Source: an uncultured Candidatus Saccharibacteria bacterium | Lineage (GTDB): Bacteria; Patescibacteriota; Saccharimonadia; Saccharimonadales; JACDBH01 | DNA: 64,000 nucleotides | Assembly (NCBI GenBank): GCA_965231105.1 | Contig: OZ246417.1 | Location: forward strand, 576,908 to 640,907 | Reading direction: 5' to 3' | In this document: piece by piece, positions 1-61,766 of the stretch | Numbering within the stretch: position 1 is the stretch's first letter | How the letters are laid out: the number at the start of each line of letters is the position of its first letter | Position numbers and translations under genes: made by a program | Notes under the pieces: generated by a model | What the model saw: only the letters and a program-made list of their open reading frames with translations | What the model was told of the DNA's origin: nothing | Database searches by the model: none

Positions 1-1
1 T

Positions 2-1550: not shown

Positions 1551-1552
1551 AT

Positions 1553-3797: not shown

Positions 3798-3821
3798 GTA
3801 CGACCTATTATCTCACACTTC

Positions 3822-4736
3822 TTATGCTGATGTATGGGGGCGATGGCCTGATTTATTAACTTCGTTAGCAGTGATCATAGCGTTACGCATTTGCTCAGCA
3901 AGATCACCCATGCCAGCTGGTGAGTGCGGAATAAGGATCGTATTTGATTTGCCCGTAAGGCCAATATCTTTAATGGTGTCGAAGTACTGGGTCATCATGA
4001 CAAGATTCATGACATCCTGTGCATTTGCTCCCTGTACTGTTTGCGCAAAGTTCTCAACAGAATCCTTAAGGCCTTCAATAATAGCTCGGCGCTGGTTGGC
4101 AATACCCTGTCCTTGTAAGGCTTTACTTTCAGCTTCACCTTCAGCAGCTTTCACCACACGAATCTTATCTGCTTCAGCCTGTTCAACAGCAGCAGCACGA
4201 AGACGCTGAGCAGCGTTAATCTCGTTCATACTCTGCTTAACTTTGGCATCCGGATCAATATCAGTTACAAGCGCTTTAACAATACCGTATCCAAAGTCAT
4301 CCATAACTTGATCAAGTTCGCTTTTAACGGCCGAAGCAATTTCGTCTTTTACCTGGAAGAGAGAGTCGAGGTCAACAGTTGGTACACGGGCACGAACGGT
4401 ATCAAATACGAATGAAGTGATCTGTCCTTGCGGATCTTGAAGACGATAAAACGCATCAAGTGCTTTTGCAGGTAATACATAATACTGCACGCTTACCACG
4501 ACAAACACGAATACGTTATCTTTCGTCTTAGTTTCTACCCGCACATCAAGCTGCTGCACGCGTAAAGATAGACGCCCGGCAATTCGATCGATAAACGGAA
4601 TTTTAAAGTTAAGACCTGCTGATGAAACTTTTTTAAACCTTCCAAACCGTTCAACAATTGCTGCAGTCTGTTGTTTTACCGTAAAGAGACCGCTCGCTAA
4701 AAGAATGAGCAGCGCGATCACAATTATATAGACCAT
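3822..4736 (-). CDS. SPFH/band-7 (stomatin/prohibitin-like) membrane protein
   Basis: N-terminal TM, then VKQQTAAIVERFGRF...GLNFKIPFID, and a C-terminal Ala/Glu-rich coiled coil (AQRLRAAAVEQAEADKIRVVKAAEGEAE). Confidence 0.85.
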   Translation of the reverse strand: MVYIIVIALLILLASGLFTVKQQTAAIVERFGRFKKVSSAGLNFKIPFIDRIAGRLSLRVQQLDVRVETKTKDNVFVFVVVSVQYYVLPAKALDAFYRLQDPQGQITSFVFDTVRARVPTVDLDSLFQVKDEIASAVKSELDQVMDDFGYGIVKALVTDIDPDAKVKQSMNEINAAQRLRAAAVEQAEADKIRVVKAAEGEAESKALQGQGIANQRRAIIEGLKDSVENFAQTVQGANAQDVMNLVMMTQYFDTIKDIGLTGKSNTILIPHSPAGMGDLAEQMRNAMITANEVNKSGHRPHTSA

Positions 4737-4797
4737 GAGATTCCTCCTTGAATACTAAGCGTAGTATAGCTCCCTCTCTGTAAAATAGAAAGAAAAA

Positions 4798-5271
4798 TTA
4801 AGCTGTTCGTGCCATAGAATGCGTAATGGCTGCCGCTAAGGCATCGGCGCAGTCGTCAGGCTTTGGCACTTCTTTAAGCTGCAATACTACTCGAACCATT
4901 TCCTGTATCTGTTTCTTATCAGCCTTGCCGTAACCAGTGAGAGCCTGTTTGATCTGTTGGGGCGTGTATTCGGCGATTTTAAGACCAGCCTGCTGGGCAG
5001 TAAGAAGCACTACTCCTCTAGCCTGCGAAACGGTCATCGCAGTAGTGACATTCTGAGAGAAAAAGAGCTTTTCTACCGCCATTTCATCAGGTTTCGTGTC
5101 TTTAATGATTGAGGTTAGTTCCTCAAAGATAGTATGTAAGCGCACTGCGTCATCCTCTTTAACAGGCGTGCGAATCACACCTGCATCAACAAGCTGAGGT
5201 TTGCCTTTGACCATTTCAATAACACCAAATCCCAAAATGCCCGTACCTGGATCGATGCCAATAATTCTCAT
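4798..5271 (-). CDS. ruvC: crossover junction endodeoxyribonuclease RuvC
   Basis: MRIIGIDPGTGILGFGVI start, internal EKLFF and a C-terminal DCADALAAAI motif. Overlaps the yebC stop. Confidence 0.9.
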   Translation of the reverse strand: MRIIGIDPGTGILGFGVIEMVKGKPQLVDAGVIRTPVKEDDAVRLHTIFEELTSIIKDTKPDEMAVEKLFFSQNVTTAMTVSQARGVVLLTAQQAGLKIAEYTPQQIKQALTGYGKADKKQIQEMVRVVLQLKEVPKPDDCADALAAAITHSMARTA

Positions 5272-5972
5272 GTGAGGTTTATGTGTGTGTTGACCACATC
5301 ATCAAGCTCATCAAGCGTATCCATAAGTCGCTCAATTTTAGCAGCGGTGTCAGGATCAGTGACCTCAACAGTGTTGTTGGGCTCATAGGTTAACTCGGCA
5401 TCAATAACTTCAAGGCCAGCAGCTTTAAGATTGTCGCGAACCTTAGCAAGCTCTTTAGGATCGGTATACACAATCGTCTCTTCGCCTTCTTCGTTTGCGT
5501 CTTCAGCTCCGGCATCCAAAACCGCCAGTAACGTGTCTTCACCGGTTCCTTTTACGCGAATTACCCCTTTGCGAGCAAACTGAAAAGCCACCGCACCCTT
5601 TTCGGCAATACTGCCGCCGTGCTTGGAAAACGCGTGTCTTACTTCTGGATAGGTACGGTTAAGATTATCTGTGGCACATTCAACAAGTATCGCAACTCCC
5701 CCAGGGCCGTAGCCTTCATACAAGACTTCCTGAAGCTGTGCGGCACTTTTATCTGATACACGCTGAACGGCACGCTCGATATTTGAAAGTGGCATGTTAG
5801 CTGCTTTGGCTTTTTCAATTGCCATCGCCAGACTAGGATTCATAGTAGGGTCTGCGCCGCCACGGGCAGCGATAGCAATTTGATTACCAAGACGCGTAAA
5901 GACCGCGCCACGCTTTGCGTCGGTGACGGCTTTCTGCCTCTTAATCGTTGACCATTTACTATGTCCGCTCAT
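5268..5972 (-). CDS. yebC: YebC/PmpR family DNA-binding transcriptional regulator
   Basis: MSGHSKWSTIKRQKAVTDAKRG...FTRL is the family-defining N-terminus. Confidence 0.9.
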   Translation of the reverse strand: MSGHSKWSTIKRQKAVTDAKRGAVFTRLGNQIAIAARGGADPTMNPSLAMAIEKAKAANMPLSNIERAVQRVSDKSAAQLQEVLYEGYGPGGVAILVECATDNLNRTYPEVRHAFSKHGGSIAEKGAVAFQFARKGVIRVKGTGEDTLLAVLDAGAEDANEEGEETIVYTDPKELAKVRDNLKAAGLEVIDAELTYEPNNTVEVTDPDTAAKIERLMDTLDELDDVVNTHINLT

Positions 5973-5981
5973 ACTTTGTAG

Positions 5982-5990
5982 ATTATAACA
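5982..5990 (-). promoter_or_regulatory. extended -10 box (TGTTATAAT) 9 nt upstream of the yebC ATG
   Basis: The minus strand reads TAATCTGTTATAATctacaaagtATG, with no Shine-Dalgarno between the box and the start. Confidence 0.5.
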
Positions 5991-6198
5991 GATTAGATTT
6001 CTTAAATAATGGCAACTTTTGGGCGAGCAATGTACTTAATACCCCCGCACCATACTTCATAAGGTCAGAGAGAACAATGGGGCTGACTATCGCTATACCC
6101 AGTACAGTAAGGAGCGCTACAATACCAAACCAAAAACGATACTTCATACGAAGCTTCTTGAGCTCAAAATGCGGGCTTGAATGCCTCACCCCTGCCAT
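5983..6198 (-). CDS. small membrane protein (hypothetical)
   Basis: GGAG lies 9 nt upstream of the ATG and overlaps the stop of the upstream gene. One TM helix (FWFGIVALLTVLGIAIVSPIVL). Confidence 0.4.
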   Translation of the reverse strand: MAGVRHSSPHFELKKLRMKYRFWFGIVALLTVLGIAIVSPIVLSDLMKYGAGVLSTLLAQKLPLFKKSNLL

Positions 6199-6202
6199 TC
6201 AC

Positions 6203-6925
6203 TTATGCTCCTTTTTTATCGGTAACCGATTCCAAAGAGCGTATAGCATCCTTAAATTCGCCCATGCTTAAGGGGTAAATAAGGCGTGACGGGAAGAAAA
6301 CCACGACACCGCTTGAAAGCGGAACATGCAAACCCTCTCTTGTTTCTGCGGGCGATTTAAGAGGTTGAGGCACATGCTGTTGAACATCGTTATCTGCGGT
6401 TTCATCATCAGGTTCTTCTTCATTTTCACCAACAGAAGCATTGCCGGATAAGTTTAAAATCCCGTTTTTCAGTAGCCCAGCATATTCAAAGGTACTTTGA
6501 ATAGTTTTTGCAGTCAGGCCTGCGACAGAATCCTTAATGCCAAACTTTCGAATAAGAATCGTGGAGAGCATGGAAGGCAATGGTTTGCCGTCAAAATCCC
6601 GTGCAACCGAACTAAATAATTTAGGGCTAAGAGCAGCCTCTCTGAGAGCCACCTCTTTTTCACCCTCGAGCGGGAAGATAAGACGTTGCGTCAGTGATGC
6701 CTCCTTATACAAAGCACCGGCTCGCTCCAAAAGTCCGTAGTGCACCAACGCCGCGATAACACGACCTGCACGTCCCCCTATTTTTTCAGAGTCCGATTTA
6801 TGTCCCATGGCTTCCGCTAGGGTCATTCGATCGTACGGTCCTGAACCCAGTTTCTCTCTTACTCGAGTTATTTTTTCAACCGCTTCCCTGAGATCGATCA
6901 CGGGATAAGCTGTACTTCGCTGCAT
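6203..6925 (-). CDS. hypothetical protein
   Basis: 240-aa ORF with a strong SD (TAAGGAGGgtaatcttATG). It has an acidic linker (ENEEEPDDETADND). No motif recognised. Confidence 0.6.
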   Translation of the reverse strand: MQRSTAYPVIDLREAVEKITRVREKLGSGPYDRMTLAEAMGHKSDSEKIGGRAGRVIAALVHYGLLERAGALYKEASLTQRLIFPLEGEKEVALREAALSPKLFSSVARDFDGKPLPSMLSTILIRKFGIKDSVAGLTAKTIQSTFEYAGLLKNGILNLSGNASVGENEEEPDDETADNDVQQHVPQPLKSPAETREGLHVPLSSGVVVFFPSRLIYPLSMGEFKDAIRSLESVTDKKGA

Positions 6926-7057
6926 AAGATTACCCTCCTTATTAAGCTATGGTCATTATGGCTCTATACGGCTTTAATTGTCAAGATTTAGACAGCTTTT
7001 GCGGTTTTTGTACGGCTCCATATTTTAATTCTAGAGATAAGCTAGAAGGAAATGCTC

Positions 7058-38741: not shown

Positions 38742-40115
38742 ATGCTGCACCGTTTTTATACAACTTTCATTCTTCCCCGCTCCAAAGATCCAGACGCCTC
38801 TGCCCGCGAGCTCGTTCTTAACTGGCTTCTGTTTGGTATTATCGTACTGAACTTTTTTAGTTGCGTTAATTCATTGGTAAGTCTCTTGGTCTTGGGCAAA
38901 TCATATATCTTGCCCCGTTTTCTCTTTATTACTGCGCTCCTCGTTTTTTGGATTAGTCTATATACAATCTCGAGAATTAAAAATAAACAAAAGCTCGCCG
39001 AACGCATTGTCGTTGCAACGTTCTTTTTACTGGCAAGTTTTGTTATTGAAGCTTGGGGCATCCTTACGCCCGCAGGCGTTTTAACATTCAGTCTTGTCAT
39101 AATTATGGCCGGCATATTACTCGGCTCAATATATGCCGTGTATACGGCACTACTTGCGACGCTCGTAACAGCAATCTTAGAGTACTTACGAATAAGTAAT
39201 GTTATCGAACCGAGTCTCCAATGGATGAGCCGTAGTTCCACCATGGGCGATGTCGTGGTACATGGCACTATTTTTAGCATTCTCGCGCTAATATCTTGGC
39301 TATTTAACAGACAGATGGAAATATCGCTCAGAAGAGCAAAGCGTTCAGAAGCTGCACTACTGAGGCAAAAATTATTGCTCGAAATTAGAATCGAAGAACG
39401 AACTCGAGAATTAGAAGCAGCCCAACTGGAAAAGGTTCAACAATTCTATCGTTTTGCCGAATTAGGACATTTAAGTACTGCTCTGTTTCATGATCTTGCC
39501 AATCACGTTATGAGTGTGAGCCTTGATATTGAGGGTTTGAAAAAACAGCATAGTCCCGATATAAAACGCATCCAAGAAAATATGAATCATATCGATGAGG
39601 TTGTGCAGCGTGTACGCCAGCACATACAGGGCAAAAAGAGTATTGAGTCGTTTAACGCTGTGAGCGAGACAGAGGAAGTAATAAAGATTTTGTCCTCATC
39701 CTCCAAAAAAGCACGTGTACTCGTAGAGCTACATATTTCGCCTTCGGCTGAAGTGCTACAGTATCGAGGTGACATTACTCGTTTCCGACAAATTGTTACT
39801 AACCTCATTATGAACGGAATCGAGTCATACAAAAAAGAAGGCGGATTGTCTGAGCGACTTGTAACGGTACACATCGAGAAGCTTTCGGATCACCTTCATA
39901 TTAGCGTCCACGATCATGGCAAAGGCATTCCTAGCTCTCTGCAATCAAAAATATTTGAACCGTTCTACAGCACAAAAGACAAAGGTATAGGCATCGGACT
40001 TTTCATCGTCAAGAAAGTAACAGAAGAAGACTTTAAAGGCACCATTGCCGTTACGAGCACCAAGAAAGAAGGCACTACCTTTACTGTTAGCCTGCCACTT
40101 AAACATAATGAGTAG
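38742..40115 (+). CDS. sensor histidine kinase with a polytopic membrane sensor domain
   Basis: The first 200 aa or so are about 5-6 hydrophobic helices with only short loops, followed by a coiled coil. H-box LSTALFHDLANHV, N-box NLIMNGIES, G1 DHGKGI, G2 GIGIGL. Confidence 0.85.
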   Translation: MLHRFYTTFILPRSKDPDASARELVLNWLLFGIIVLNFFSCVNSLVSLLVLGKSYILPRFLFITALLVFWISLYTISRIKNKQKLAERIVVATFFLLASFVIEAWGILTPAGVLTFSLVIIMAGILLGSIYAVYTALLATLVTAILEYLRISNVIEPSLQWMSRSSTMGDVVVHGTIFSILALISWLFNRQMEISLRRAKRSEAALLRQKLLLEIRIEERTRELEAAQLEKVQQFYRFAELGHLSTALFHDLANHVMSVSLDIEGLKKQHSPDIKRIQENMNHIDEVVQRVRQHIQGKKSIESFNAVSETEEVIKILSSSSKKARVLVELHISPSAEVLQYRGDITRFRQIVTNLIMNGIESYKKEGGLSERLVTVHIEKLSDHLHISVHDHGKGIPSSLQSKIFEPFYSTKDKGIGIGLFIVKKVTEEDFKGTIAVTSTKKEGTTFTVSLPLKHNE

Positions 40116-42060
40116 CAAGAGCACACTTAATAAAGCCATCGGCAAAGCGCTCCACTATATAGATTCTCAGCAACAAGAAAATGGTGGGTTCATAAGCCAT
40201 TCGAGTTCGTCTTCTCAGAATTTCACTCAAAGCATTCCTTATCAAACTACTTTCGTACCGGCTTTAATGTTAGCCTGTCTTTCGGTTAATAATAAACCCG
40301 TAAGCCAACAACTGCGCGTACGTTTAGCACAATTTTTATTAGAACAAAGAAGTCCTTCAGGATCTTTTAACTATTGGACAAAAGATGGGCCGGAACATAC
40401 AACTCTTCCCTACCCAGATGACCTTGATGACACATTCTGCGCGCTCATTGGACTTACGCTTCATGATTCCTCACTTATTAATGAGGAGGTGCTTGTAAAG
40501 ACAATCTCTCTTCTTTTGGCAACCGAAATTCAGGTCGGTGGACCCTACCGAACTTGGCTCGTGCCTCAGGCTGCTCATAAAGTATGGCAGGATGTAGATC
40601 TAGCCGTTAATACGAATATCGCCTACTTTCTTTCACTGGTGAGTCGGCCGCTTCCCAATCTCACAAAGTTCATGGAAGATGCAATAAAACAGGATTCCTT
40701 ATCTTCTCCGTACTACCCCTCTGAGTATCCGCTTATTTATTATCTTTCTCGTACGTATCGGGGTTCGCTGCAAACAAAGCTCCTGCAAAAAATGCGACGG
40801 CTACAAAAACTCAAGAAGCTATCTTCGCTTGAGAATGCGCTTCTCCTTACATCGTTATTACGCCAAGACAAAATGTCTGATCTTTCGGATCTCGTTCAAG
40901 AATTGCTCACTCAACAACAATCTGACGGCTCCTGGCCAGCGAGTGCATTTTGCATAGACCCAAGCGTTAAAGGTAAGAAGCATTTTCATGGCGCCTCGGT
41001 ACTTACTGCTAGCTTTGCTATTGAGGCACTGACAATTTACCAACGATCGATTTCGCAGCAAGAAACTTTACGGGAGCCAAAAGAACAAAAGACCGATGTA
41101 CTTGAAGAATTGCGGCGCATGGTCACGGCGGAATGCCGCACACTTCCTCGCTATCTTCGTGAAGATACCTTGGCTTTTGAAATAAAGGTTCTAGAAAGTA
41201 AAAATGGTTTAGAAATTGTTGGTTTACCGCAGGCGTTTAACGATTCGCTGCGACATCCTTTACGCAATAAAAAGGAATTCTTGCTACATCTGGGCTTGGC
41301 AAATCTTCATGGCTGGACCGCTTATACGATTTATGATGATTTTATTGATAATGAAGGACAGCCGCACTTGCTCTCGGTAGCCAATATTTCTATGCGTCGA
41401 TCGTTGCAGGGATTTTTAAATGTGCAAAACTTAGATTTCCAAAAATATGTACAACAAACATTTGATTACATTGATAATGCCAATGCCTGGGAATTGGCCC
41501 AATGTCGTTTTGTGGTAAACGATACTAAAATAGCTATTGGTAAATTGCCATCCTACGGAAATCTATCTAAGCTAGCCGAGCGCTCATTAGGCCACACCCT
41601 TACACCGCTCGCAATACTAATAACCGGAGGGAATTCCATAAACTCATCATATTTTCGCGAACTTCAAAACTTTTTTAAGCATTATCTTATCGCCAAACAA
41701 CTCAATGATGATGCCCATGATTGGCAAGATGATGTTCGAAAAGGCCATATAACATACGTAGTAAGAACACTTCTGCATGACCTTAATGTACCTATGGGCG
41801 AGCAATCTCTGGTACGCCTAATGCCACGTATGCAGAAACAATTCTGGCACTATTCACTTACGCATATATGCAAGCTTATGAGACGCCATGTTACGCTAAG
41901 TCAACGAGCACTGGCCAAGTTAGAGATATTAAAACCTCAGAATGTTTTCGTGAAATTACTTGAAGATATTGAGGTTTCAATTAATGAAACTGAGTCATCA
42001 CAGGCCCAGGCCATAAATTTTTTAAAGCACTATAAAAAGCACACGAGAGTAGTAGCATGA
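40108..42060 (+). CDS. two-domain isoprenoid enzyme-like protein: N-terminal SHC/prenyltransferase-repeat (alpha/alpha toroid) domain fused to a C-terminal class-I isoprenoid-synthase-like domain
   Basis: The start ATG overlaps the kinase stop by 8 nt. The N-half has QW-like repeats (KALHYIDSQQQENGGF, RLAQFLLEQRSPSGSF, LVQELLTQQQSDGSW) and DDLDDTF (40417-40431), resembling the class II DxDD(TA) motif. The C-half has DDFID (41335-41349) and NDDAHDWQDD (41704-41733), about 125 aa apart, like DDxxD and NSE/DTE. Confidence 0.6.
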   Translation: MSSKSTLNKAIGKALHYIDSQQQENGGFISHSSSSSQNFTQSIPYQTTFVPALMLACLSVNNKPVSQQLRVRLAQFLLEQRSPSGSFNYWTKDGPEHTTLPYPDDLDDTFCALIGLTLHDSSLINEEVLVKTISLLLATEIQVGGPYRTWLVPQAAHKVWQDVDLAVNTNIAYFLSLVSRPLPNLTKFMEDAIKQDSLSSPYYPSEYPLIYYLSRTYRGSLQTKLLQKMRRLQKLKKLSSLENALLLTSLLRQDKMSDLSDLVQELLTQQQSDGSWPASAFCIDPSVKGKKHFHGASVLTASFAIEALTIYQRSISQQETLREPKEQKTDVLEELRRMVTAECRTLPRYLREDTLAFEIKVLESKNGLEIVGLPQAFNDSLRHPLRNKKEFLLHLGLANLHGWTAYTIYDDFIDNEGQPHLLSVANISMRRSLQGFLNVQNLDFQKYVQQTFDYIDNANAWELAQCRFVVNDTKIAIGKLPSYGNLSKLAERSLGHTLTPLAILITGGNSINSSYFRELQNFFKHYLIAKQLNDDAHDWQDDVRKGHITYVVRTLLHDLNVPMGEQSLVRLMPRMQKQFWHYSLTHICKLMRRHVTLSQRALAKLEILKPQNVFVKLLEDIEVSINETESSQAQAINFLKHYKKHTRVVA

Positions 42061-45571: not shown

Positions 45572-48121
45572 ATGGGAAGTATTAAGGGGCAATTGCGCAC
45601 GCGATTAAGTAAACTCCGAGCTCTCGCTGGAGTAGCTTTGCTGGCGTTTGCAATGATGACGTCTATCCCCTTGGCTCAAGCAGCACCTGCCGTGACGTTT
45701 ACTGGCAACTCCTCGGTAAGCGGTAAATGGTACGACCCAATCTCGCTTAGTACCCTACAGATTACTGGCAGCGGCAACCCCACTGTTTCAGTGGAGCTAA
45801 GTGTTCCAGAGGGTCTTATTGGTATGACCACGATGACGGGGCTGACTTTTACTATCCAGGATGATGAACGGCTTAAGTTTACCGGCACTATGAGCAATAT
45901 CAACGCAGCCTTAGCGACACTTTATTTTGAGGCTGAAACTACAGAGACGGTAGTATTAGAAGCGTCGGTTACGGGCGCCGATGAAGTGTATTGGCCAGGA
46001 AACGGACATATCTATGAATATGTGCCCGTAGGTGGCAACATCAACTGGGTAAATGCCAATACCGCAGCTCAAGCTCGTACGAACGGCGGGATGAACGGTT
46101 ACCTAGCAACGATTACCTCTGACGAAGAAAATACCTTTGTAGCTGCTCGGTTAACCGGTGCGGGCTGGATGGGAGCAAGCGATGCCGGTACAGAAGGCGT
46201 CTGGCAGTGGGTTACCGGACCAGAAGCTGGAACAACATTTTGGAATGGTGCTATTGGCGGTACGGTCGTACCGGGTCAGTATGAAAACTGGAATGAAAAC
46301 GAGCCAAATAACTCTGGAAACGAGGACTGCGCGCAGTATCTTATTGGTGCTGGCGATGAAGGTCAGTGGAATGACTTAAACTGCTCGACCAGTATGATTG
46401 CTGGATATGTCGTAGAGTACGGTGATGATGATACCGTTCCAGAAGTCGCTACTAAAAGTATTACTATCAATGTTGGTTGGGATACGTACGAAGTCGATTC
46501 ATGCGAAGATCTGCAAGACTATGTTACAGGTGCACCTCACAAGATGGATACGCTTGTACAAACAGCCGACATCGACTGTGAGGGTGTAGACTTTGAGCCC
46601 CTTTTTCAGGACACACCGTTTAGCGGTGTTTATGATGGCCAGGGACATACAATTAGTAATATCACTATTGATGAGCCGGGCAGTAGCGTAGGACTCTTTA
46701 GTGCCACTGAGAACGCCGATCTGCATGACCTAACTATTTTTGGTTCAGTCAGCGGAGATGGCAAAGTTGGTGGACTCGTTGGAGATGCTCAAAACACTGA
46801 TATTGCCGCCGTCCATTCACATATGGAGGTAACGGGCACAGATGATTATGTGGGTGGATTGGTTGGAAACTTTGTAACCCGGAAAGAAGTTAGCTTCTAT
46901 GATAGTTCGAGTAGCGGGAATGTGAACGGCACAGACACGGTTGGCGGGTTGGCAGGTGCTGTGCAGGCATATGATCGTGCTGAACTTTTTATGTTTAAAG
47001 TATTCGCGACAGGCAATGTTACCGGGACTATTGTAGGCGGTGGTTTAATCGGATATATGACCATTTATTCAACAGTAGCCGATGAAACAAGTGCGAGTTT
47101 GCAAGATGCATACGCAACCGGTAATGTAACAACCGATTACTATGCCGGTGGCTTAATTGGCAAATTGGATACGAATAACGATGATGGCACAAACCCTACT
47201 ACATTCAGCCTGCGTCGTACCTATGCAACGGGCGATATAACAACTAATGAATATGGCGGTGGACTTATTGGCGAGTATATAGGGCCAACAGAGGATGGAG
47301 TTGATGTAACTATCAGCGACAACTTTGCCGTGGGTGAAGTTGTCTCGCAGGATCCAAGTATCGGAGGTGGCTTAATCGGCAGTTATACGGACAATGAACC
47401 TATTACGGCCGATAATAACTACTTTGATTCAGCGCGTACTGGGCAGGATGATTGTAGTGGTGGCGATCCATTCCCCGGTACCTGTACGGCCATCGATGAC
47501 TCACAGCCTGATTATTTCTTTAACAACACAACTAGCTCGCCGCTCGATGAATGGAACTTTGGCGAGATTTGGGTAATGCATCGCTTCACTTATCCTACCT
47601 TCGAATCTATTAACGAAGACGATCTCAATGGTGACAATATTCAGGACTCAGAGCAAAACAATCTGAGCGGGTATACCAGTTCTATTACTGGCAAGAAAGT
47701 TCTTATTGATGTTGGTAGCGGCTGTGAAATCACCACCGATGACTTGATGCGTGAATCAAGTCTGACCGTAAAAGACCCTGGTTATGAATATGAAAATGGG
47801 TTATTCGATTTCGCTGGGGATTGTGGAACGCCTGGATTTACGACTACGATTAAGCTGTATTACTATGGCATTTCTAAGGCTGGGCTTATTGTTCGAAAAT
47901 ACAACCCTACCACTCATGCCTTTACTAACCTGAGCGCGAGCTATGGCGCAACCCTCACCGAAACAACTATTGATGGCAGTTTAGTTACTATCGCCAGCTA
48001 CCAACTTACCGATGGCGGCCCCTTGGACCTAGATGGCATTGTGAACGGTGAGTTTGAGGACCCTGTTGGTTTGGCGCGCGCAAATGTAGGCGCCCCTAAC
48101 ACAGGACTATCTCGACGTTGA
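45572..48121 (+). CDS. large secreted surface protein: C-type lectin domain, GLUG-type repeats and a C-terminal choice-of-anchor-like domain
   Basis: Signal peptide ...SIPLAQA/AP. CTLD about 45998-46420 (WMGASDAGTEGVWQWV...YENWNENEPNNSGNEDCAQY...GQWNDLNC), with EPN at 46301-46309 and WND at 46367-46375. Seven GGL(V/I/A)G repeats lie at about 46754-47387. The C-terminus reads ...DGGPLDLDGIVNGEFEDPVGLARANVGAPNTGLSRR. Confidence 0.8.
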   Translation: MGSIKGQLRTRLSKLRALAGVALLAFAMMTSIPLAQAAPAVTFTGNSSVSGKWYDPISLSTLQITGSGNPTVSVELSVPEGLIGMTTMTGLTFTIQDDERLKFTGTMSNINAALATLYFEAETTETVVLEASVTGADEVYWPGNGHIYEYVPVGGNINWVNANTAAQARTNGGMNGYLATITSDEENTFVAARLTGAGWMGASDAGTEGVWQWVTGPEAGTTFWNGAIGGTVVPGQYENWNENEPNNSGNEDCAQYLIGAGDEGQWNDLNCSTSMIAGYVVEYGDDDTVPEVATKSITINVGWDTYEVDSCEDLQDYVTGAPHKMDTLVQTADIDCEGVDFEPLFQDTPFSGVYDGQGHTISNITIDEPGSSVGLFSATENADLHDLTIFGSVSGDGKVGGLVGDAQNTDIAAVHSHMEVTGTDDYVGGLVGNFVTRKEVSFYDSSSSGNVNGTDTVGGLAGAVQAYDRAELFMFKVFATGNVTGTIVGGGLIGYMTIYSTVADETSASLQDAYATGNVTTDYYAGGLIGKLDTNNDDGTNPTTFSLRRTYATGDITTNEYGGGLIGEYIGPTEDGVDVTISDNFAVGEVVSQDPSIGGGLIGSYTDNEPITADNNYFDSARTGQDDCSGGDPFPGTCTAIDDSQPDYFFNNTTSSPLDEWNFGEIWVMHRFTYPTFESINEDDLNGDNIQDSEQNNLSGYTSSITGKKVLIDVGSGCEITTDDLMRESSLTVKDPGYEYENGLFDFAGDCGTPGFTTTIKLYYYGISKAGLIVRKYNPTTHAFTNLSASYGATLTETTIDGSLVTIASYQLTDGGPLDLDGIVNGEFEDPVGLARANVGAPNTGLSRR

Positions 48122-54169: not shown

Positions 54170-54457
54170 ATGAGCATTGGTATAGAAACGACCGTCAGTC
54201 ATCCTTCAGCCGGAGCAAACTTTTATGCGAGTGATGATCAAGAAGTTTGGCGAAATGCAGCCAACTGCCTGGGCGTTAACACTGAGCTTTTCTTTCCCAC
54301 TGAAGATCCTGCGCTCGCCCGCCAAGCAAAAGAGGTCTGTCGCAACTGTGTAGTACGAGAGGAATGTCTCGATTATGCGCTCGCTAGTAATGAGATGGGC
54401 GGAGTGTGGGGTGGGACGGATGAAGATGAGCGTGCCGTGTTGCCTAAGCCCGTGTAG
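54170..54457 (+). CDS. WhiB-family (Wbl) Fe-S transcriptional regulator
   Basis: Four Cys in a C-x23-C-x2-C-x5-C arrangement (AANCLG...EVCRNCVVREEC), followed by a GVWGG turn and a basic tail. Confidence 0.9.
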   Translation: MSIGIETTVSHPSAGANFYASDDQEVWRNAANCLGVNTELFFPTEDPALARQAKEVCRNCVVREECLDYALASNEMGGVWGGTDEDERAVLPKPV

Positions 54458-54514: not shown

Positions 54515-54590
54515 GGGGGTATAGCTCAGTGGTTAGAGCAGAGGACTCATAATCCTTTGGTCCTTGGTTCAAGTCCAAGTACCCCCACCA
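54515..54590 (+). tRNA. tRNA-Ile2-like (CAT, presumably lysidine-modified), CCA encoded
   Basis: GGGGGTA-TA-GCTC-AGTGGTTA-GAGC-A-GAGGA-CTCATAA-TCCTT-TGGTC-CTTGG-TTCAAGT-CCAAG-TACCCCC-A-CCA. The D arm, variable region and T arm closely resemble E. coli tRNA-Ile2 as I recall it. Confidence 0.8.
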
Positions 54591-54632
54591 ATATTTCGGC
54601 CTAGAATATCTAAGCGTGCTATTATTCAAGTA

Positions 54633-55352
54633 ATGTTCCCGATAATCGTTGTACTATTCCTCCTTTATAATGGCCTCGGGTTTATTGGTATCGCTCTGTT
54701 GGTTCTCTCGAGCACATTGTTAGTAAGAAGTCTTATTGATCACCGCCCCATCAAGCAATGGCATGTTATTTTACTCGCTCTTGGAATCGTGGCGCTATTT
54801 GGGCAGAATGCCATAGTTGGTCGTATTCGTACATCTGGAAATAAGTTTGATCAAAACATCATTTCGCGTACAGCATATGACATATACGTTCCGCAGAAAA
54901 CGATCGGCGGTTCAAAGGTAGATAGTATACGTGCCACAAGAAATGGAGATAGCGCAGGCTATGTCGTTGAATATACTGGCGAGCCCCTGATGTATCTTTA
55001 TGAAGATTCGGTCAAACATATGTCTACCTTTGGCCCAGCAATTCCCGGTCAGCTTTTTACATGCAATTTACCCAAAAACGGAATAGCCGATCCTGGCTGC
55101 AAGAAGATTGGGACAACCAAGAATGGGATTGATGTGTATGTTGATGCTGACCGGTATACGCCTGACAAAGAATCATTTTACGTTGCTTCTGCAATAATTG
55201 GACAGACACACGTTGGTCTTGAGGCTAGAGGCTATATAAAACCCGAGGACCTGTTAGCTTATTTTGAGGCACTGCAAAAAACTTCTCGCAGTGACCTGAA
55301 ATTCCGGAACGGCAACAATAACCTCCTTATCTTCCCCTATATTAGCTTCTAG
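54633..55352 (+). CDS. membrane-anchored hypothetical protein
   Basis: The track ORF starts inside the tRNA, so I moved it to the Met at 54633 (MFPIIVVLFLLYNG...). Two or three TMs and an extracytoplasmic domain. Confidence 0.5.
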   Translation: MFPIIVVLFLLYNGLGFIGIALLVLSSTLLVRSLIDHRPIKQWHVILLALGIVALFGQNAIVGRIRTSGNKFDQNIISRTAYDIYVPQKTIGGSKVDSIRATRNGDSAGYVVEYTGEPLMYLYEDSVKHMSTFGPAIPGQLFTCNLPKNGIADPGCKKIGTTKNGIDVYVDADRYTPDKESFYVASAIIGQTHVGLEARGYIKPEDLLAYFEALQKTSRSDLKFRNGNNNLLIFPYISF

Positions 55353-56524: not shown

Positions 56525-57793
56525 TTAGTGTACTTTCAGTGTAGACCCATTATTAAATAGTTCGCTGTAATAATTCTTATCACCCCAACGGAGCTCTTCG
56601 AGCACTGGTGGAAGCTGTATACGCTCAAATGTTATACAACCAGGATGTACTGAATTCCAAATAACTTGTCGCTTTTCTGCCACTGAGAGATCATCAAAAT
56701 CACGCCCACCAAACTGATCTATTTCTAAGCCCGTATTCAGAGCGTTATGCGCATAGCGAATTCCCGTAACCGTTTCGGTGAAGGTAATCGAATCATTGAC
56801 GACTGTACTTACTTGATCAACGTTGTCCGGAATATCATCCGTTACGCCGGTAACATAGTCTGGCTCATTACTCTCAGCCGTGTAGAGCTGTGCAAACCAG
56901 CGTTCGTTTGGCTGTGTAGGACTACTAGGATTCGCAGTGTGTGGGTCATTCGATACTGCAGTAATTTTATATGTACCGGCAGGAATTGACTCATTAAGTT
57001 GTATTGGCGGATCTGGCTGTTCAGGATATAGCGCATCCATAAGCGCATATGAAAGTAAGGACTCGTTGCCAGGGAACTTACAGACCGTAAAGGAAATAGG
57101 CACTGCTACACTGCTAATACTGTTGTTAGTGAGAGTGGCTGTACTGCTAAGCTGTGCATGCACCAGCGGACTAATGATTAGTCCTGAGATCATTATGAGA
57201 ACGAGGACCTTTGCAGAAAGAGCGAGCTTATTAGTATGCTCTTCACGTGGACGCTTGCCTATAAGCGCCATTCGCTTATTAGCTTGGTAAATTTGTTGGG
57301 AACGATAATGAGCGAGTAATCGTCGTACTTCAGAAATAATAATCATTAGAGAAGGAATATAGATTATAAGCAGTAGCCCGAGAGGCTTGCGAATAAAGTC
57401 AGCACCATAACCTACATACGGCACAGAATACCGCACTTTTCCTATGATTTGTGTTGCATCAAGCGCCGTATCGTTACTTTGATTTGCATCACCCTTGGTG
57501 ACAAATTTCTTAACTTCGTTTCCACTACCCAGTACTTGAACTATACGGTGCGTTACCGTGGAATTCTTATCTCGTGGATTAATGAATGTAACAATGTCCC
57601 CGGGTTGTAGTTTATCCGCAGGGACACGAGTTACGCTCACAAGATCACCCTTATTAAGCGCAGGCACCATACTACCACTTTGCACACTCAGCAAATGTCC
57701 GCCTTGTATGCGGGTTATGATTGCCAGTGCGCTTACGCCCACCAGAAAGGTTAGCGCAAGCGCGGCAAAGGATCGCTTAATAAAGCGTATCAT
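56525..57793 (-). CDS. SipW-type (archaeal/ER-type) signal peptidase I with a roughly 250-aa C-terminal extension
   Basis: N-terminal TM, catalytic Ser motif SGSMVPAL, VTHRIV (His), KGDAN and a C-terminal TM. A complete signal-peptide-like segment and an extra domain follow in the same ORF. Confidence 0.75.
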   Translation of the reverse strand: MIRFIKRSFAALALTFLVGVSALAIITRIQGGHLLSVQSGSMVPALNKGDLVSVTRVPADKLQPGDIVTFINPRDKNSTVTHRIVQVLGSGNEVKKFVTKGDANQSNDTALDATQIIGKVRYSVPYVGYGADFIRKPLGLLLIIYIPSLMIIISEVRRLLAHYRSQQIYQANKRMALIGKRPREEHTNKLALSAKVLVLIMISGLIISPLVHAQLSSTATLTNNSISSVAVPISFTVCKFPGNESLLSYALMDALYPEQPDPPIQLNESIPAGTYKITAVSNDPHTANPSSPTQPNERWFAQLYTAESNEPDYVTGVTDDIPDNVDQVSTVVNDSITFTETVTGIRYAHNALNTGLEIDQFGGRDFDDLSVAEKRQVIWNSVHPGCITFERIQLPPVLEELRWGDKNYYSELFNNGSTLKVH

Positions 57794-57804
57794 CTAATGA
57801 AAGC

Positions 57805-58422
57805 CTAATCTTCTACTACTGGTACCACTACTTCAGCTTCATTTGTACCGGTGAAGACGAGGTCGAAGTCGTTAATTTCGACTGGGCCACTGCCACTAAC
57901 CGCACCGGGTAAGAGTTGGACCTGAACATCGAAATTCTCCGTCTCTCCATCAGGAAGAGTAGCGGTAGGGCCACCTGAGCCAGGTACATTGTTAAATAAA
58001 GCTTCGAGTTGAGCTAAAGTGTACTCGGCTGATTCCTCTGGATTATTATTAGTGAACTTAACAACCACTTTAGACTTATCAAGTCCAGTACCAGTTACGG
58101 TTCCGACTGTTGCATATACAGTCACGTCAAGATCCACATTTCCTGTGTTTGAGAGAGAGAAGTGCTGCGGAGCACTGTAACCACCGCCAGGAACTAATCC
58201 AGTAAATGAAAAACCTGTGTCACTATTGTCAGTGTTAGCGCCCTCTACATCCGTATTGTCAATCACGAGACTGGCAGTTGCAGTTGTGATTTCGTTATCC
58301 GTTAAGGTCGCCGTACTGTTAAGCGCAGCAAATGTTACGCCTGTTGCTAACGCAACTACAGCACCAACAACCGTGACGGCACGTGCCACAGGATTAATTT
58401 TTCGTATTGCTAACATACCCAC
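57805..58422 (-). CDS. TasA/camelysin-like protein with a SipW-cognate-type signal peptide
   Basis: MGMLAIRK...VVALATGVTFAALNSTATLTDNEITTATASL follows the A-x-F/L-x-D/S...N-x-I/F-T pattern of SipW substrates. A beta-rich body follows. Directly upstream of the SipW-like gene. SD is AAGGGGGTG. Confidence 0.6.
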   Translation of the reverse strand: MGMLAIRKINPVARAVTVVGAVVALATGVTFAALNSTATLTDNEITTATASLVIDNTDVEGANTDNSDTGFSFTGLVPGGGYSAPQHFSLSNTGNVDLDVTVYATVGTVTGTGLDKSKVVVKFTNNNPEESAEYTLAQLEALFNNVPGSGGPTATLPDGETENFDVQVQLLPGAVSGSGPVEINDFDLVFTGTNEAEVVVPVVED

Positions 58423-58572
58423 CCCCTTAAATTATTTAATAACACTGTAGGCCTTAGTAAGCCTACCTATTCCACCCCTGCCCTCACAGCAGACATGTAC
58501 AAATACCATTGTATACCGCTTATGGCGCGTTTATGTTGTAAAAAGAGCAAATTTAATGTTCTGTTAATTTTC

Positions 58573-59904
58573 TTACATCGCTAGTTCTTGCGCGAAAGAG
58601 TAATCATAAAAACCTTCGGAATATCGATCCCAGTAATGGTGAGCTTCGTAACGAACGCTATTAGATGAATCGCTAATCCATGCACTTGGATGGTTCTTAG
58701 ACCATCGGGCTAAACTAGACCAATCATAACCGGCAACCATAACGAGCGTTCCATCACCTGCAGCACGCAATGCTGAAACAACTTTCTGCGAGGCAGCTTC
58801 CCAGTTTTTAGCCGCAGAGGGATAGCCACCGGTTGGCAAATCATGAGGTTCGTTCATAATGCCGTATGCTAATAAGCCAGGATGTCCCTTAAACGCCTGG
58901 CTCAACTTTACCCATACATCAACAAGTGATTCATGGGTTATGCCGGCACCAAGCTTTAGGACACCCCCAGCAGTCTTATACTCACCATAGTTATGCAGAT
59001 CTAACACTACCCGGATTCCATAGGCACTGGCCGAATCAAGAATTCTTCGTATTTCGGTAATCTCACTGTCTTTAAGCGCACCATTTAAAGAGGGTTGGAT
59101 GCGCTCCCAGCGGAATGGCAGGCGGACAATCTTAACACCACGCGCAGCAAGATAGGCAAAACTATCGCGTGGTTCATAGAAATAATCTCGGCCAGGCGTC
59201 CCAGGATTTGTGTTGGTTACACTATTGCCAAATTCCATTCCTGCAACATTCACACCATGAAGTTTATTGCTGCTCTTGAAAAACTTTTCCAAAATAGATG
59301 CTTGCGGGTGAGCTGTATCGAGGCTGCGTGGTCCACTCCCGTGCGCATAAATGGTGAGCTTATAACTACCCCACCAACTACCCGCTGCCCAGGCCGTAGT
59401 CCAGATATCATAGTTCTGTGCAGCTTGATACCAATGATCAGCAACGCTATTCCAACTACCGGCATCGTTGCCAGCCGGCCAGCCAAGCTCTCCTACAAAG
59501 CCCTTGGCACTATTCGCAGACAGCCACGAACCAAATGAGTTAAGTTCGTCTATGGCTTGCTGTTCAAGCGCATTACGAGAAACCGCAGTAGCTGTTGTAG
59601 AGGACGAACCATGACCTGGTTTCTTCACCAGCTCACTTGGCGATTCAACCACATGCTGTTCGGTTGCCGCAGTCTGTACCTCCGGCTGGGCGGTAGGTTC
59701 TGTGTTGGCATCTTCGGTCGCTTTTTTATGTTCATTGCGGGTAATAGAATATATTACTGTTCCCGCTACAAGCACACCACCTGCAGCTCCAAGCAGCATA
59801 GCCTGTTTACTTCTTGAAAGACTTTTCTTCGCTTTAAACCTGTCCTGTCCTGTTTTCTCTTTTATCACTTTGATCCAGTGTATAGACCGGTGACTGCCTG
59901 ACAT
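58573..59904 (-). CDS. membrane-anchored glycoside hydrolase family 5 protein
   Basis: GVNVAGMEFG, VVLDLHNY, GIMNEPH (acid/base Glu), and YEAHHYWD. N-terminal TM plus a low-complexity linker. Confidence 0.85.
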   Translation of the reverse strand: MSGSHRSIHWIKVIKEKTGQDRFKAKKSLSRSKQAMLLGAAGGVLVAGTVIYSITRNEHKKATEDANTEPTAQPEVQTAATEQHVVESPSELVKKPGHGSSSTTATAVSRNALEQQAIDELNSFGSWLSANSAKGFVGELGWPAGNDAGSWNSVADHWYQAAQNYDIWTTAWAAGSWWGSYKLTIYAHGSGPRSLDTAHPQASILEKFFKSSNKLHGVNVAGMEFGNSVTNTNPGTPGRDYFYEPRDSFAYLAARGVKIVRLPFRWERIQPSLNGALKDSEITEIRRILDSASAYGIRVVLDLHNYGEYKTAGGVLKLGAGITHESLVDVWVKLSQAFKGHPGLLAYGIMNEPHDLPTGGYPSAAKNWEAASQKVVSALRAAGDGTLVMVAGYDWSSLARWSKNHPSAWISDSSNSVRYEAHHYWDRYSEGFYDYSFAQELAM

Positions 59905-59907
59905 ACC

Positions 59908-61263
59908 CTACCCCTTTTCTGTAATGTCCTCTGCGATCATATGCGCAACCTTCTTACCATCACGCACTGCATAATTTGTACCCCGATCTTCAGGAAAAAT
60001 CTGTGAGAAATTCGCCATATAGAAACCTTCGAGTGGCGTTTTCATGTCTGGCAATTTATCCTCATACCCAATCCCTACTATATGCTGAGCGTTTTTAAAC
60101 TTAAAGACATACGACTCCTCTACATCTGATTCGCTAAAGTCTGGGAATAGCTTTTTAGCACCTTTAAACCAGCGCGCACGAATGGCATCGTCATCAAGAT
60201 TCATGAGCTCGCTATCATTTTGAGTGTAGTCACCGATGTAATACACATGATGACCATTTACCTTATCTGCCCCTACCAATGAATCAAGGCTTAAGAGCAC
60301 CAAGAACGGCGCACCTTCATCATGAATTTGATGCCAATAACGATCAGTAATTGGTTTTTTAGTCGTAAATACCATAACCACTGCGCCAAGGTAATCGATC
60401 GACGTCAGCTGATTTGCATATTCTTTGGTCATCTGCGGATGCTTTTCGCCTAGCTTTGCAAATGTACCGCTTGGTAGTGCAGCCAATACTGCATCATACA
60501 CGCGCGTCTTACCTTCTACTTCCAAAGCCGGCTTATCGTCCACATTGGTAAAGGCAGAAATTTTTGCATTGAGGTTAATTTTTACGTCGCGTTTTTTAAG
60601 CTCGGCAATCCACCGCTGCACCATAACTTGGAAACCACCGTCAAAATAACCAAGGCGTTCAGACTGCTCGCCCTTTTCTTTCGAAGTTTGGCGCACATGA
60701 ATGCGTGTCCATAGCCAGGCCATCGTAATCTTATCCCAATAGATATCAAATTTACCCACCAACAGCGGCTTCCAAATAAGATCCGTCGCTCGCTTACCGT
60801 TCCATTTGCACAGCCATTCGTAGGCTGTGACTTTGGTTAGTGGTTGCCACTTTTTGATAAAGAGCAAACGGACACCCGTTAGTCCAGTACGCAAGCGATC
60901 TATCATATTTAAGGGGCCAAAAGTTAAGAGATCCTTAGCAGTTGTGAACGGATACATCTTGCCCTTATAGAAAGCGCCGATTGAGCTGGGATGGAAATGA
61001 AGCTTATTAGCAATGCCCAGCTCTTTAGCCATATCAATCATATAGTTATCTGTTGTGTACAGAAAGTGATATGCCCGTTCAAGTGGCGTACCGTCTTTTA
61101 AGGCAAATCCTGAAGCGAGTCCGCCCAATACAGGGCCAGCTTCAAAGATTTCAACTTTGTATCCTTGTTTTGAAAGTTCATATGCAGCCGTTAACCCAGT
61201 CCAACCGCCACCTACAATTGCTACTGTTTGCTGTTTAGAGCCTGAGTTCTGCTTTGTTGCCAT
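59908..61263 (-). CDS. FAD/NAD(P)-binding oxidoreductase (amine-oxidase/phytoene-desaturase-like fold)
   Basis: The dinucleotide motif VAIVGGGWTGLTAAYEL...VEIFEAGPVLGGLA. Confidence 0.8.
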   Translation of the reverse strand: MATKQNSGSKQQTVAIVGGGWTGLTAAYELSKQGYKVEIFEAGPVLGGLASGFALKDGTPLERAYHFLYTTDNYMIDMAKELGIANKLHFHPSSIGAFYKGKMYPFTTAKDLLTFGPLNMIDRLRTGLTGVRLLFIKKWQPLTKVTAYEWLCKWNGKRATDLIWKPLLVGKFDIYWDKITMAWLWTRIHVRQTSKEKGEQSERLGYFDGGFQVMVQRWIAELKKRDVKINLNAKISAFTNVDDKPALEVEGKTRVYDAVLAALPSGTFAKLGEKHPQMTKEYANQLTSIDYLGAVVMVFTTKKPITDRYWHQIHDEGAPFLVLLSLDSLVGADKVNGHHVYYIGDYTQNDSELMNLDDDAIRARWFKGAKKLFPDFSESDVEESYVFKFKNAQHIVGIGYEDKLPDMKTPLEGFYMANFSQIFPEDRGTNYAVRDGKKVAHMIAEDITEKG

Positions 61264-61271
61264 AGTATTCC

Positions 61272-61754
61272 TTATATAACGCTTTCTAATGCACGGTCTT
61301 CATGATTTTTCTCCACCTTAAATGTAAACCGACTATTTAATGTAAACTGCACGATAAATACTACCGGTAAGGTAAGGTTCTTAACGAGCAGACTATTAAG
61401 TCCGATAATTTCACTCATCGTCCATAGCATGAATGAACTGATAAGAAATCCTGTGCAAGTCACCAGAATAAAGCTCACAAATCGCTTGAGAAGGCCATTA
61501 CGTGTACGGAAATTAAAGAAGGCATTCATAAGAAAGCTATATACCATTGCGAGTGCTATTGATATGCCATTATTTAGTATCACAGACATATGGGTTGCCT
61601 CGTCAATGATCCAGAAAGCTCCCACATCGATAATAACCGCAATACCGCCAATAATTCCGTAGAGAATTAGCTTCTCAAACCTATTAACTAACTTTACAAA
61701 TTTATCCGGTAAGAACGATGCCGGAATGCGATGTAATAGTTTTTCGCTCGCCAT
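61272..61754 (-). CDS. GtrA-family membrane protein
   Basis: 160 aa, four TMs, ...YGIIGGIAVIIDVGAFW... and ...LNSRFTF at the C-terminus. Confidence 0.75.
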   Translation of the reverse strand: MASEKLLHRIPASFLPDKFVKLVNRFEKLILYGIIGGIAVIIDVGAFWIIDEATHMSVILNNGISIALAMVYSFLMNAFFNFRTRNGLLKRFVSFILVTCTGFLISSFMLWTMSEIIGLNSLLVKNLTLPVVFIVQFTLNSRFTFKVEKNHEDRALESVI

Positions 61755-61766
61755 GTTTCCTCCTTA

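Follow-up and report, generated by a model that had tools for sequence, protein, structure and literature searches.

A two-gene cassette was analysed on the minus strand (positions 56525-58422) of a 64-kb stretch of Candidatus Saccharibacteria DNA, which is referred to below as the window. The first gene (57805..58422, 205 amino acids from a GTG start) encodes a small protein with a predicted pilin-like fold, and the second (56525..57793, 422 amino acids), which follows after a gap of 11 nucleotides, encodes a signal peptidase whose C-terminal part is predicted to be a second substrate. On balance, with confidence a little above even, we read the pair as a secreted donor-strand fibre module, made up of a pilin and of a peptidase fused to a TapA-like minor subunit. 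The case is built on family assignments, gene order across genomes, the active site, topology signals, the predicted pilin-like fold, and a motif that is duplicated between the two proteins, conserved and co-varying. A preliminary description of this DNA had proposed a SipW-type signal peptidase paired with a TasA/camelysin-like substrate; the open reading frames (ORFs) that it named have exact coordinates, and the motifs that it quoted are all present, SGSMVPAL, THRIV and KGDAN at amino acids (aa) 39-46, 81-85 and 100-104 of the 422-aa protein and GVTFAALNSTATLTDNEITTATASL at aa 28-52 of the 205-aa protein.

The gene pair and its pilin-like product

Species-representative genomes were scanned with the peptidase alignment, which gave 46 loci; a single peptide pattern was used, so that the locus counts are lower bounds and biased to close relatives. 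The upstream side is included in 31 Saccharibacteria-type loci, and in every one of them a pilin-family gene ends directly in front of the peptidase gene (L004-L029, L031-L033, L048 and L049, a few of these metagenome-assembled genomes (MAGs) being labelled as other phyla). The truncated locus L041 has the same arrangement, and L049 contains two tandem pilin genes. None of the window neighbours (YGGT, PRTase, GH5, amine oxidase, GtrA and PMT_2-GH8) is conserved beside the pair in the 45 other loci, and the flanking genes were therefore rejected as parts of the cassette. Judged by gene order, the pilin and the peptidase form a self-contained two-gene cassette.

The pilin family was assembled from 32 database clusters with lengths of 180-234 aa, and the window member was divided into the following parts:

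58327..58422, minus strand: signal peptide of the pilin (aa 1-32), with a basic n-region, a hydrophobic h-region and the c-region G-V-T-F-A (hydropathy; helix at aa 11-34 in the AlphaFold2 (AF2) model; TIGR04088)
58258..58326, minus strand: predicted N-terminal donor strand of the mature pilin, ALNSTATLTDNEITTATASLVID (aa 33-55; conservation, hhalign and the position of the strand in TasA)
57841..58257, minus strand: β-sandwich body of the pilin (aa 56-194), with the LVPGG...F.L.N.G motif common to TasA and the C-terminal strand DFDLVFTGT (AF2, Foldseek and conservation)
57805..57840, minus strand: acidic, poorly conserved tail of the pilin (aa 195-205) and stop codon (ORF and conservation)

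Cleavage of the pilin is predicted after A32. In the family alignment T30 is invariant and A32 near-invariant, and L40, L52, G70, N92, F186 and F190 are invariant as well. The signal peptide had been described as SipW-cognate, and a signal peptide of this type is suggested by the TIGR04088 model, which gave 16 bits for the window pilin (E 0.01, aa 18-49), just below its cut-off of 19, and matched 16 of the 32 family members (best E 4.6e-5), and by the constant position of the gene next to a peptidase gene. Conservation in the family is highest in the cleavage region and the 20 residues that follow it (3.4-3.6 bits per column); next is the C-terminal strand DFDLVFTGT with 2.9 bits, and the rest has 2.1-2.7 bits per column.

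It has been reported from cryo-electron microscopy that TasA residues 28-38, the first after SipW cleavage, are the donor strand that is inserted in the next subunit (PMC9674648). When the pilin profile was compared with Bacillus subtilis TasA (a query checked residue for residue against PDB 8aur), hhalign returned a probability of 64.7% with 32 sequences and of 68.0% with 59 sequences. The overlap comprises 64-69 columns and TasA residues 17-86, with the last part of the signal peptide, the strand after the cleavage site and the L.PG...F.L.N.G strands. The same profile was aligned with a TasA-like protein of the candidate phyla radiation (CPR) at 75% probability. We read the post-cleavage segment of the pilin as a putative donor strand; if it is one, this would be the reason why the SipW-cognate signal-peptide motif extends into the mature protein.

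The AF2 model of the pilin, calculated from the 32-sequence alignment, is a β-sandwich with a predicted local distance difference test score (pLDDT) of 82.8, a predicted template modelling score of 0.74 and core pLDDT values of 90-97. The top match in a Foldseek search of the PDB was self-complemented FimA (2m5g, E 3e-5, 188 aligned columns), and the further informative top matches were FimA 5nkt, the Sulfolobus thread 7pnb (E 2e-3), FimG, CS17/CS20, CfaB and AbpA 7ueg (E 0.027), a TasA-like bundling pilin from archaea; every one of the informative top matches is a donor-strand-complemented filament subunit. Neither a sortase signal nor a membrane anchor was found at the C-terminus of the pilin. 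We conclude that the 205-aa product is a minimal pilin-like protein, and that a remote kinship to TasA is probable, though unproven. The dedicated peptidase and fibre-subunit module suggested in the preliminary description gains support from the synteny in 31 of 31 loci, from these fold matches and from the lack of any conserved catalytic residue in the pilin alignment.

The last of these points also bears on a different identity for the family, since two members are named 'ribosomally synthesized peptide with SipW-like signal peptide' by the Joint Genome Institute (JGI), and four of the 32 members show sub-threshold similarity to PF12389 (TasA/camelysin, Peptidase_M73; gathering threshold 22.5 bits), the best being P0138 with 18.1 bits at aa 12-115. 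A non-structural role of the 205-aa product, as a camelysin-type (M73) metalloprotease or as the precursor of a ribosomally synthesised and post-translationally modified peptide (RiPP), is nonetheless very improbable. No conserved His, Glu, Asp or Cys that would suggest catalysis, metal binding or modification is present in the family alignment, and both identities were rejected for this reason. Moreover, the product is a confidently folded β-sandwich of ~170 aa instead of a short core peptide, no modification enzymes are conserved nearby, and the JGI name is a mere TIGR04088 label.

The peptidase and its fused cargo

In the second gene the peptidase comprises only aa 1-160, and the remaining ~260 aa are a separate module. 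The peptidase motifs quoted for the 422-aa ORF fall in the first of these parts; the extension, with a second predicted substrate, had been overlooked. The parts of the protein are as follows:

57710..57769, minus strand: first transmembrane segment of the peptidase (TM1, aa 9-28), an anchor with its N-terminus inside (hydropathy; three Lys/Arg in aa 1-8; AF2 helix at aa 2-29)
57386..57709, minus strand: S26B catalytic domain (aa 29-136) with Ser41 (SGSM), His82 (THR) and Asp102/Asp108 (GDAN..D) (TIGR02228, conservation, AF2 and Foldseek)
57332..57385, minus strand: second transmembrane segment (TM2, aa 137-154), running from outside to inside, the C-terminal anchor typical of SipW (hydropathy and AF2)
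57221..57331, minus strand: basic loop (about aa 155-191; nine Lys/Arg versus three Asp/Glu), predicted to be cytoplasmic, n-region of the internal signal peptide (hydropathy)
57155..57220, minus strand: third transmembrane segment (TM3, about aa 192-213), h- and c-regions of the internal signal peptide, ending in P-L-V-H-A (hydropathy and conservation in homologues)
57095..57154, minus strand: pilin-like N-terminal extension of the fused cargo, QLSSTATLTNNSISSVAVPI (aa 214-233), putative donor strand of the minor subunit (motif hidden Markov model (HMM) and conservation)
56528..57094, minus strand: fused cargo (aa 234-422), a surface domain of ~165 aa with a short, poorly modelled tail (homologues, alignment and AF2)

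TIGR02228, the model for archaeal-type signal peptidase I, was matched at aa 12-158 with 98.8 bits against a curated cut-off of 51.85, and the equivalog model of Bacillus SipW (NF046067) gave 93 bits, below its cut-off of 190; by these scores the peptidase is SipW-like, yet not an orthologue-level match to Bacillus SipW. In an alignment of 41 homologues S41, H82, D102 and D108 are invariant, and the active site is Ser/His, not Ser/Lys. Together with the constant gene order, this score and these residues put the peptidase and its pairing well outside what chance would give. The peptidase domain was modelled with a pLDDT of ~95. Its closest folds in the PDB were human SEC11C (7p2q, E 2.4e-7) and SEC11A (7p2p, E 9.5e-7), with 31% identity and template modelling scores (TM-scores, normalised by target) of 0.61-0.63, and the third-ranked match was Streptococcus pyogenes SipA (4n31, E 1.6e-4). 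The family score, the Ser/His site and the SEC11 fold agree with the endoplasmic reticulum/archaeal type assigned in the preliminary description, and the N-terminal part of the protein is, as judged by these features, a Ser/His S26B enzyme of SipW/Sec11 type for which signal-peptide removal is predicted. Proteins P0094-P0119 form a tight group of ~650-658 aa with another kind of peptidase fusion, so far uncharacterised, in which an S24/S26-like peptidase domain is joined to a long extension that lacks the internal SipW-type motif.

Three hydrophobic segments with a positive-inside charge distribution were found in the 422-aa protein, and in its predicted topology TM3 is an internal signal peptide that directs the export of the last ~210 residues, with a predicted cut after A213. 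The strand behind the V-H-A motif reads QLSSTATLTNNSISS, compared with ALNSTATLTDNEITT in the pilin, and the longer segment after TM3, QLSSTATLTNNSISSVAV, is closely similar to the mature N-terminus of the pilin, ALNSTATLTDNEITTATASL. A (V/A/T/S)-x-A site stands at the end of TM3 in ~39 of the 41 homologues, and in 38 of the 41 close homologues it is followed, within residues ~176-226, by A-L-x-S-x-A-T-L-T-G-N-T-I-S. An HMM built from pilin N-termini only found the internal site in both the window protein (E 7.7e-6) and L010 (E 6.7e-9). TIGR04088 gave no match at the internal site of the window protein. In distant CPR peptidase fusions the same internal place is taken by the classical S-Y-F-S-D-x-E...N-x-F motif, and TIGR04088 was matched there in P0048 (aa 191-224, 19.2 bits) and P0051 (aa 231-265, 19.8 bits), with P0057 at 16.7 bits below the cut-off of 19. 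In another CPR genome (locus L050, 2534..7731; GCA_964633425.1, CAZWFX010000002.1), three classical TasA/camelysin-like genes (AFFNDTETSTGNTF...), one of which carries SpaA_2 prealbumin-like domains, precede a 576-aa fusion of SipW with a lamin-tail domain that contains the internal signal-peptide motif SYFRDTEQSQLNVF. Fusions of the peptidase with a substrate therefore also occur outside Saccharimonadia. In the AF2 model of the whole 422-aa protein the motif segment (aa 216-228) is disordered (pLDDT <50) and lies outside the cargo fold, as expected of a free N-terminal extension.

The relationship between the two copies of the motif was examined in 20 genomes with fused peptidases, where the mature N-terminus of the pilin was compared with the internal segment of the peptidase. 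The mean local score was 41.0 for cognate and 28.7 for non-cognate pairs, nine of the 20 cognates ranked first, and none of 20,000 permutations reached the observed mean; in a fixed register, 7.4 identities of 20 were counted for cognate pairs versus 5.0. Variants of single lineages are mirrored in both proteins, e.g. LTSNTVALTNNSVTVA and LTSNTVSLTGNRITVA in L012 and ..TSVTLTNNQVGV and ..TSVAITGNQIGV in L017. In the window, six of the nine identical residues of the motif pair are written in different codons. The likeness is therefore kept at the protein level, and recent gene conversion was rejected as its source. The shared constraint could be imposed by the peptidase, by the acceptor groove of the pilin, or by both. 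Signal peptidases normally read positions -3 and -1, and the co-variation of a segment of 16-20 residues favours a role beyond recognition of the cleavage site.

The cargo shows a conserved Cys pair and a conserved H..Q..E.W..DD..R..H pattern whose positions are invariant in the alignment. No Pfam or NCBIfam model matched the cargo or its relatives, a PDB sequence search with the cargo was empty, and aa 205-422 gave no sequence or fold match to TapA in Pfam, NCBIfam or the PDB. The cargo differs between lineages, many having a lamin-tail domain (PF00932) and others Ser/Asn-rich tails, and the window type is common to P0002-P0004 and P0154. Stand-alone homologues of the cargo (P0155-P0159 and P0161) have an ordinary N-terminal signal peptide, and several have a C-terminal LAxTG sortase signal; the cargo domain is therefore a cell-surface domain. 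One of the sortase-signal-bearing copies, P0156, lies next to GtrA, amine-oxidase and PMT_2-GH8 genes at 1..7050 of locus L052, in a 1.0-Mb contig, where the domain is native to the glycan locus as a stand-alone gene. Since this copy adjoins the genes that flank the window cassette, the fusion of peptidase and cargo is suggested to have arisen locally, by capture of a neighbouring surface-protein gene. Furthermore, many large proteins (P0162-P0260) contain the cargo core, which spans aa 263-351 in the 422-aa protein, as a repeat, with up to 16 copies in a protein of 2713 aa. The core may be an undescribed family of surface repeats because no Pfam or NCBIfam model covers it.

The N-terminus of the cargo resembles the donor strand of the major subunit, as is characteristic of a TapA-like minor subunit, and on this basis the C-terminal extension is read as a putative minor subunit fused to its own peptidase. 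It is conceivable that the extension is never cut and that TM3 remains a permanent span, the surface domain then being a tethered accessory for anchoring the fibre base, for wall binding or for recruitment of the substrate. Cleavage of the extension is a prediction, the sortase-anchored stand-alone homologues suggest that the domain normally works at the cell surface, and a membrane-tethered protein with a donor-type strand has been proposed as the anchor (PamR) of the CPR Pam pili (10.64898/2026.03.03.709456). We consider such a permanent tether unlikely, since nearly all homologues retain the (V/A/T/S)-x-A site that closes TM3 although the cargo behind it varies among lamin-tail, Ser/Asn-rich and window types, since the TM3 segment of distant CPR fusions reaches the TIGR04088 cut-off, and since an uncut strand would start at the membrane surface, which would be awkward for insertion in a pilin.

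Proposed fibre assembly

In the fibre module that we propose, both proteins would be inserted into the membrane by Sec. The dedicated peptidase would cut the pilin after T-F-A32 and expose the conserved N-terminal strand (ALNSTATLTDNEITT...), which would enter the β-sandwich of the next subunit beside the conserved C-terminal strand, so that the subunits would be linked head to tail. The product of the second gene would be a three-pass membrane protein with, in order, TM1, the external peptidase, TM2, the basic cytoplasmic loop, TM3, the strand QLSSTATLTNNSISS and the surface domain. The peptidase would also cut its own C-terminal part after V-H-A213, in cis or in trans, and the released cargo with its matching strand would plug a free pilin groove, either as a primer or nucleator like TapA or AbpB or as an adhesin at the end of the fibre. 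In this way the cargo would bring a variable binding domain to the fibre, and the fusion would tie its amount and location to those of the enzyme. The logic of tapA-sipW-tasA would thus be compressed into two genes.

A number of results weigh against this proposal. The window pilin had no Pfam match at E<=0.1, PF12389 included, and stayed below the TIGR04088 cut-off, and a search of PDB sequences with the profile of the pilin family gave nothing meaningful. The hhalign similarity to TasA is limited to the N-terminal third of the pilin, and its E-values are pairwise and without database correction. The window pilin is not placed in PF12389, and of the TasA/camelysin-like character claimed for it a remote similarity stands. 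The TM-scores of the fold matches are modest (0.40-0.48, from a model that includes the signal peptide), and TasA is not among the top 50 PDB fold matches. As for the second gene, the co-variation of the motif could equally stem from recognition by a co-evolving peptidase instead of a shared groove, the cargo was modelled with a moderate pLDDT of 55-90, and Foldseek found no confident or informative PDB fold for it. Furthermore, ~13 of the 32 complete loci have a short peptidase (167-207 aa) without cargo. A separate cargo gene downstream of these short peptidases was sought and rejected, as none was found, and the cargo must therefore be an accessory that cannot be essential for assembly.

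Part of these results would also be expected of a dedicated peptidase-substrate pair in which the 205-aa protein does not polymerise, being a monomeric secreted or wall-associated β-sandwich (an adhesin or envelope component), with the motif as a recognition element of the peptidase only. The low TM-scores are compatible with such a monomer, the AF2 model is by itself a complete, self-contained sandwich, and co-variation of the motif would arise just as well from a shared peptidase constraint. We regard this explanation as somewhat unlikely. Conservation and co-variation reach 16-20 residues past the site, beyond what a signal peptidase normally reads, and conservation is next highest in the C-terminal strand, with which the donor strand pairs in pilins of this kind. 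In addition, the informative top folds are all donor-strand filament subunits, led by self-complemented FimA, and experiments have shown that a donor strand occupies the homologous position in TasA.

The donor-strand fibre module could be taken one step further, which we do only tentatively, by regarding the cassette as a self-priming device. Each peptidase molecule would export, and cut in cis, exactly one minor subunit that primes or caps a fibre, so that one membrane protein would process the subunits, mark the site of initiation and supply an exchangeable tip or adhesin domain; the cargoes encountered in this place are the lamin-tail domain, the Ser/Asn-rich type and the sortase-type surface domain of the window. 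If this were true, it would be the smallest known pilus biogenesis system, and it would offer genome-reduced CPR episymbionts a modular way to vary the binding of their fibres.

Chromosomal setting and related systems

The window contains genes for DnaK, DnaJ, LepA, MurJ, FtsH, ComEC and WhiB and five tRNAs, has a GC content of ~44%, and is ordinary chromosomal DNA. The nearest relatives of both cassette proteins are in Candidatus Saccharimonadales/Saccharibacteria MAGs, with 51-53% identity, which points to a genome of the Saccharimonadia (CPR/Patescibacteria). The length of 205 aa given for the pilin in the preliminary description is that of the ORF. Since an AAGGGGG Shine-Dalgarno sequence stands ~7 nucleotides before the ATG at 58416, this ATG is more likely to be the start of the gene, with a product of 203 aa; database protein P0121 (203 aa) is identical to this product. 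The region before the gene can be given as one further feature:

58423..58572, minus strand: intergenic leader 5' of the pilin gene (hairpin scan and sequence reading)

A terminator-like hairpin was found at 58447-58466, 3' of the upstream GH5 gene, and no promoter was identified in the leader. Upstream of the cassette (58573..63974, minus strand) are genes for GH5, an FAD amine oxidase, GtrA and a 735-aa PMT_2 glycosyltransferase fused to a GH8 domain, which form a surface-glycan gene set. The YGGT gene lies 18 nucleotides downstream of the cassette, and PRTase is also among the neighbours.

Elsewhere in the window, a WhiB-family transcription factor (PF02467, E 1.5e-21) is encoded at 54170..54457 (plus strand); the family is characteristic of Actinobacteria, which Saccharibacteria usually have as hosts. 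An 849-aa protein (45572..48121, plus strand) has a C-type lectin domain (PF00059, aa 173-274, E 2.5e-12); bacteria seldom have such domains, which makes the protein a candidate for host binding at the cell surface. No Pfam match was obtained for a 671-aa ORF (40045..42060, plus strand) that lies a few kb upstream on the same strand. Three tRNA-Met(CAT) genes are present, at 33252, 52817 and 54515. The last of them (54515..54590, plus strand) overlaps the TTG start of a 262-aa ORF (54564..55352, plus strand), whose true start is therefore probably later.

The cassette shares with tapA-sipW-tasA of B. subtilis a dedicated S26B peptidase encoded beside its substrates, a β-sandwich major subunit whose first post-cleavage residues are (here by prediction) the donor strand, and a minor protein with an N-terminus resembling that strand. 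It has been reported that the N-terminus of TapA resembles the donor strand of TasA, and TapA was proposed to prime assembly (PMC9674648). The window system differs in having two genes instead of three, the TapA-like partner being attached, after an internal signal peptide, to the C-terminal end of the peptidase. Its pilin is smaller than TasA (~170 aa versus 234 aa in the mature form) and below the threshold of PF12389, its peptidase falls short of the SipW equivalog cut-off (93 versus 190 bits), its cargo has no similarity to TapA, and its host belongs to an ultrasmall episymbiont lineage and not to the biofilm-forming Firmicutes.

Similarly, AbpA/AbpB of Pyrobaculum (7ueg) and the threads of Sulfolobus acidocaldarius (7pnb) consist of small β-sandwich subunits that are processed by an archaeal-type signal peptidase and have an N-terminal donor strand, which in the window pilin is predicted. 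AbpB was proposed to prime assembly with its own strand and to bear adhesin domains (PMC9245690). In contrast to the window system, these filaments use the generic archaeal signal peptidase, with none in the operon and none fused to a subunit. No sequence similarity of the window pilin to archaeal donor-strand filaments was detectable in the PDB profile search. FimA (2m5g, 5nkt), an Ig-like pilin with an N-terminal extension, is the best structural match, but at the modest TM-scores given above and 18% identity, which points to analogy or very remote kinship. Chaperone or usher genes were neither present in the window nor conserved at the cassette loci, and the host, unlike that of FimA, is a monoderm-type CPR cell. 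SipA of S. pyogenes, which acts in sortase-linked pili and is not known to have the catalytic residues, is likewise a signal-peptidase-fold protein of a pilus locus. In the title of PDB entry 4n31 it is described as a homologue of signal peptidases without which the pilus does not polymerise. Here, the Ser, His and Asp residues of the window peptidase are invariant and the window subunits have no sortase signal.

For locating hosts and staying attached to them, surface filaments are central in Saccharibacteria and other CPR bacteria, and to our knowledge the only CPR surface filaments characterised so far are type IV pili and Pam pili. The latter (PamA/PamB), found in Ca. Mycosynbacter amalyticus and to date the sole donor-strand pili described in CPR bacteria, are donor-strand-exchange filaments of Saccharimonadia without a trans-envelope machine; their pilins are two-domain proteins of 39-55 kDa assembled with membrane-anchored PapD-like chaperones, and the paper does not mention a dedicated signal peptidase, SipW or TasA (10.64898/2026.03.03.709456). 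Membership in the Pam pili was rejected for the window proteins, neither of which matches the NCBIfam CPR_pilus_* models. A PamT score of 13.5 bits (cut-off 240) came from the unrelated neighbour ORF 54564..55352 and is most likely due to chance. The window cassette is a separate system, much smaller than the Pam pili. TasA homologues in Patescibacteria have been mentioned in one sentence (PMC9245690), and a full-text literature search, of incomplete coverage, returned no account of the cassette in Saccharibacteria and none of a SipW-type peptidase that carries its own substrate as a fusion. SipW/TasA systems as such are known; what is unusual in the architecture is that an internal signal peptide joins a signal peptidase to a substrate of its own.

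If confirmed, the cassette would be a second donor-strand fibre system of CPR bacteria, widely conserved, for which two genes suffice. It would provide a compact and portable model of TasA-type assembly and nucleation, and the reach of the SipW-cognate motif into the mature protein would be accounted for by its being the donor strand. The variable cargo domains would then be candidate modules for recognition of the host.

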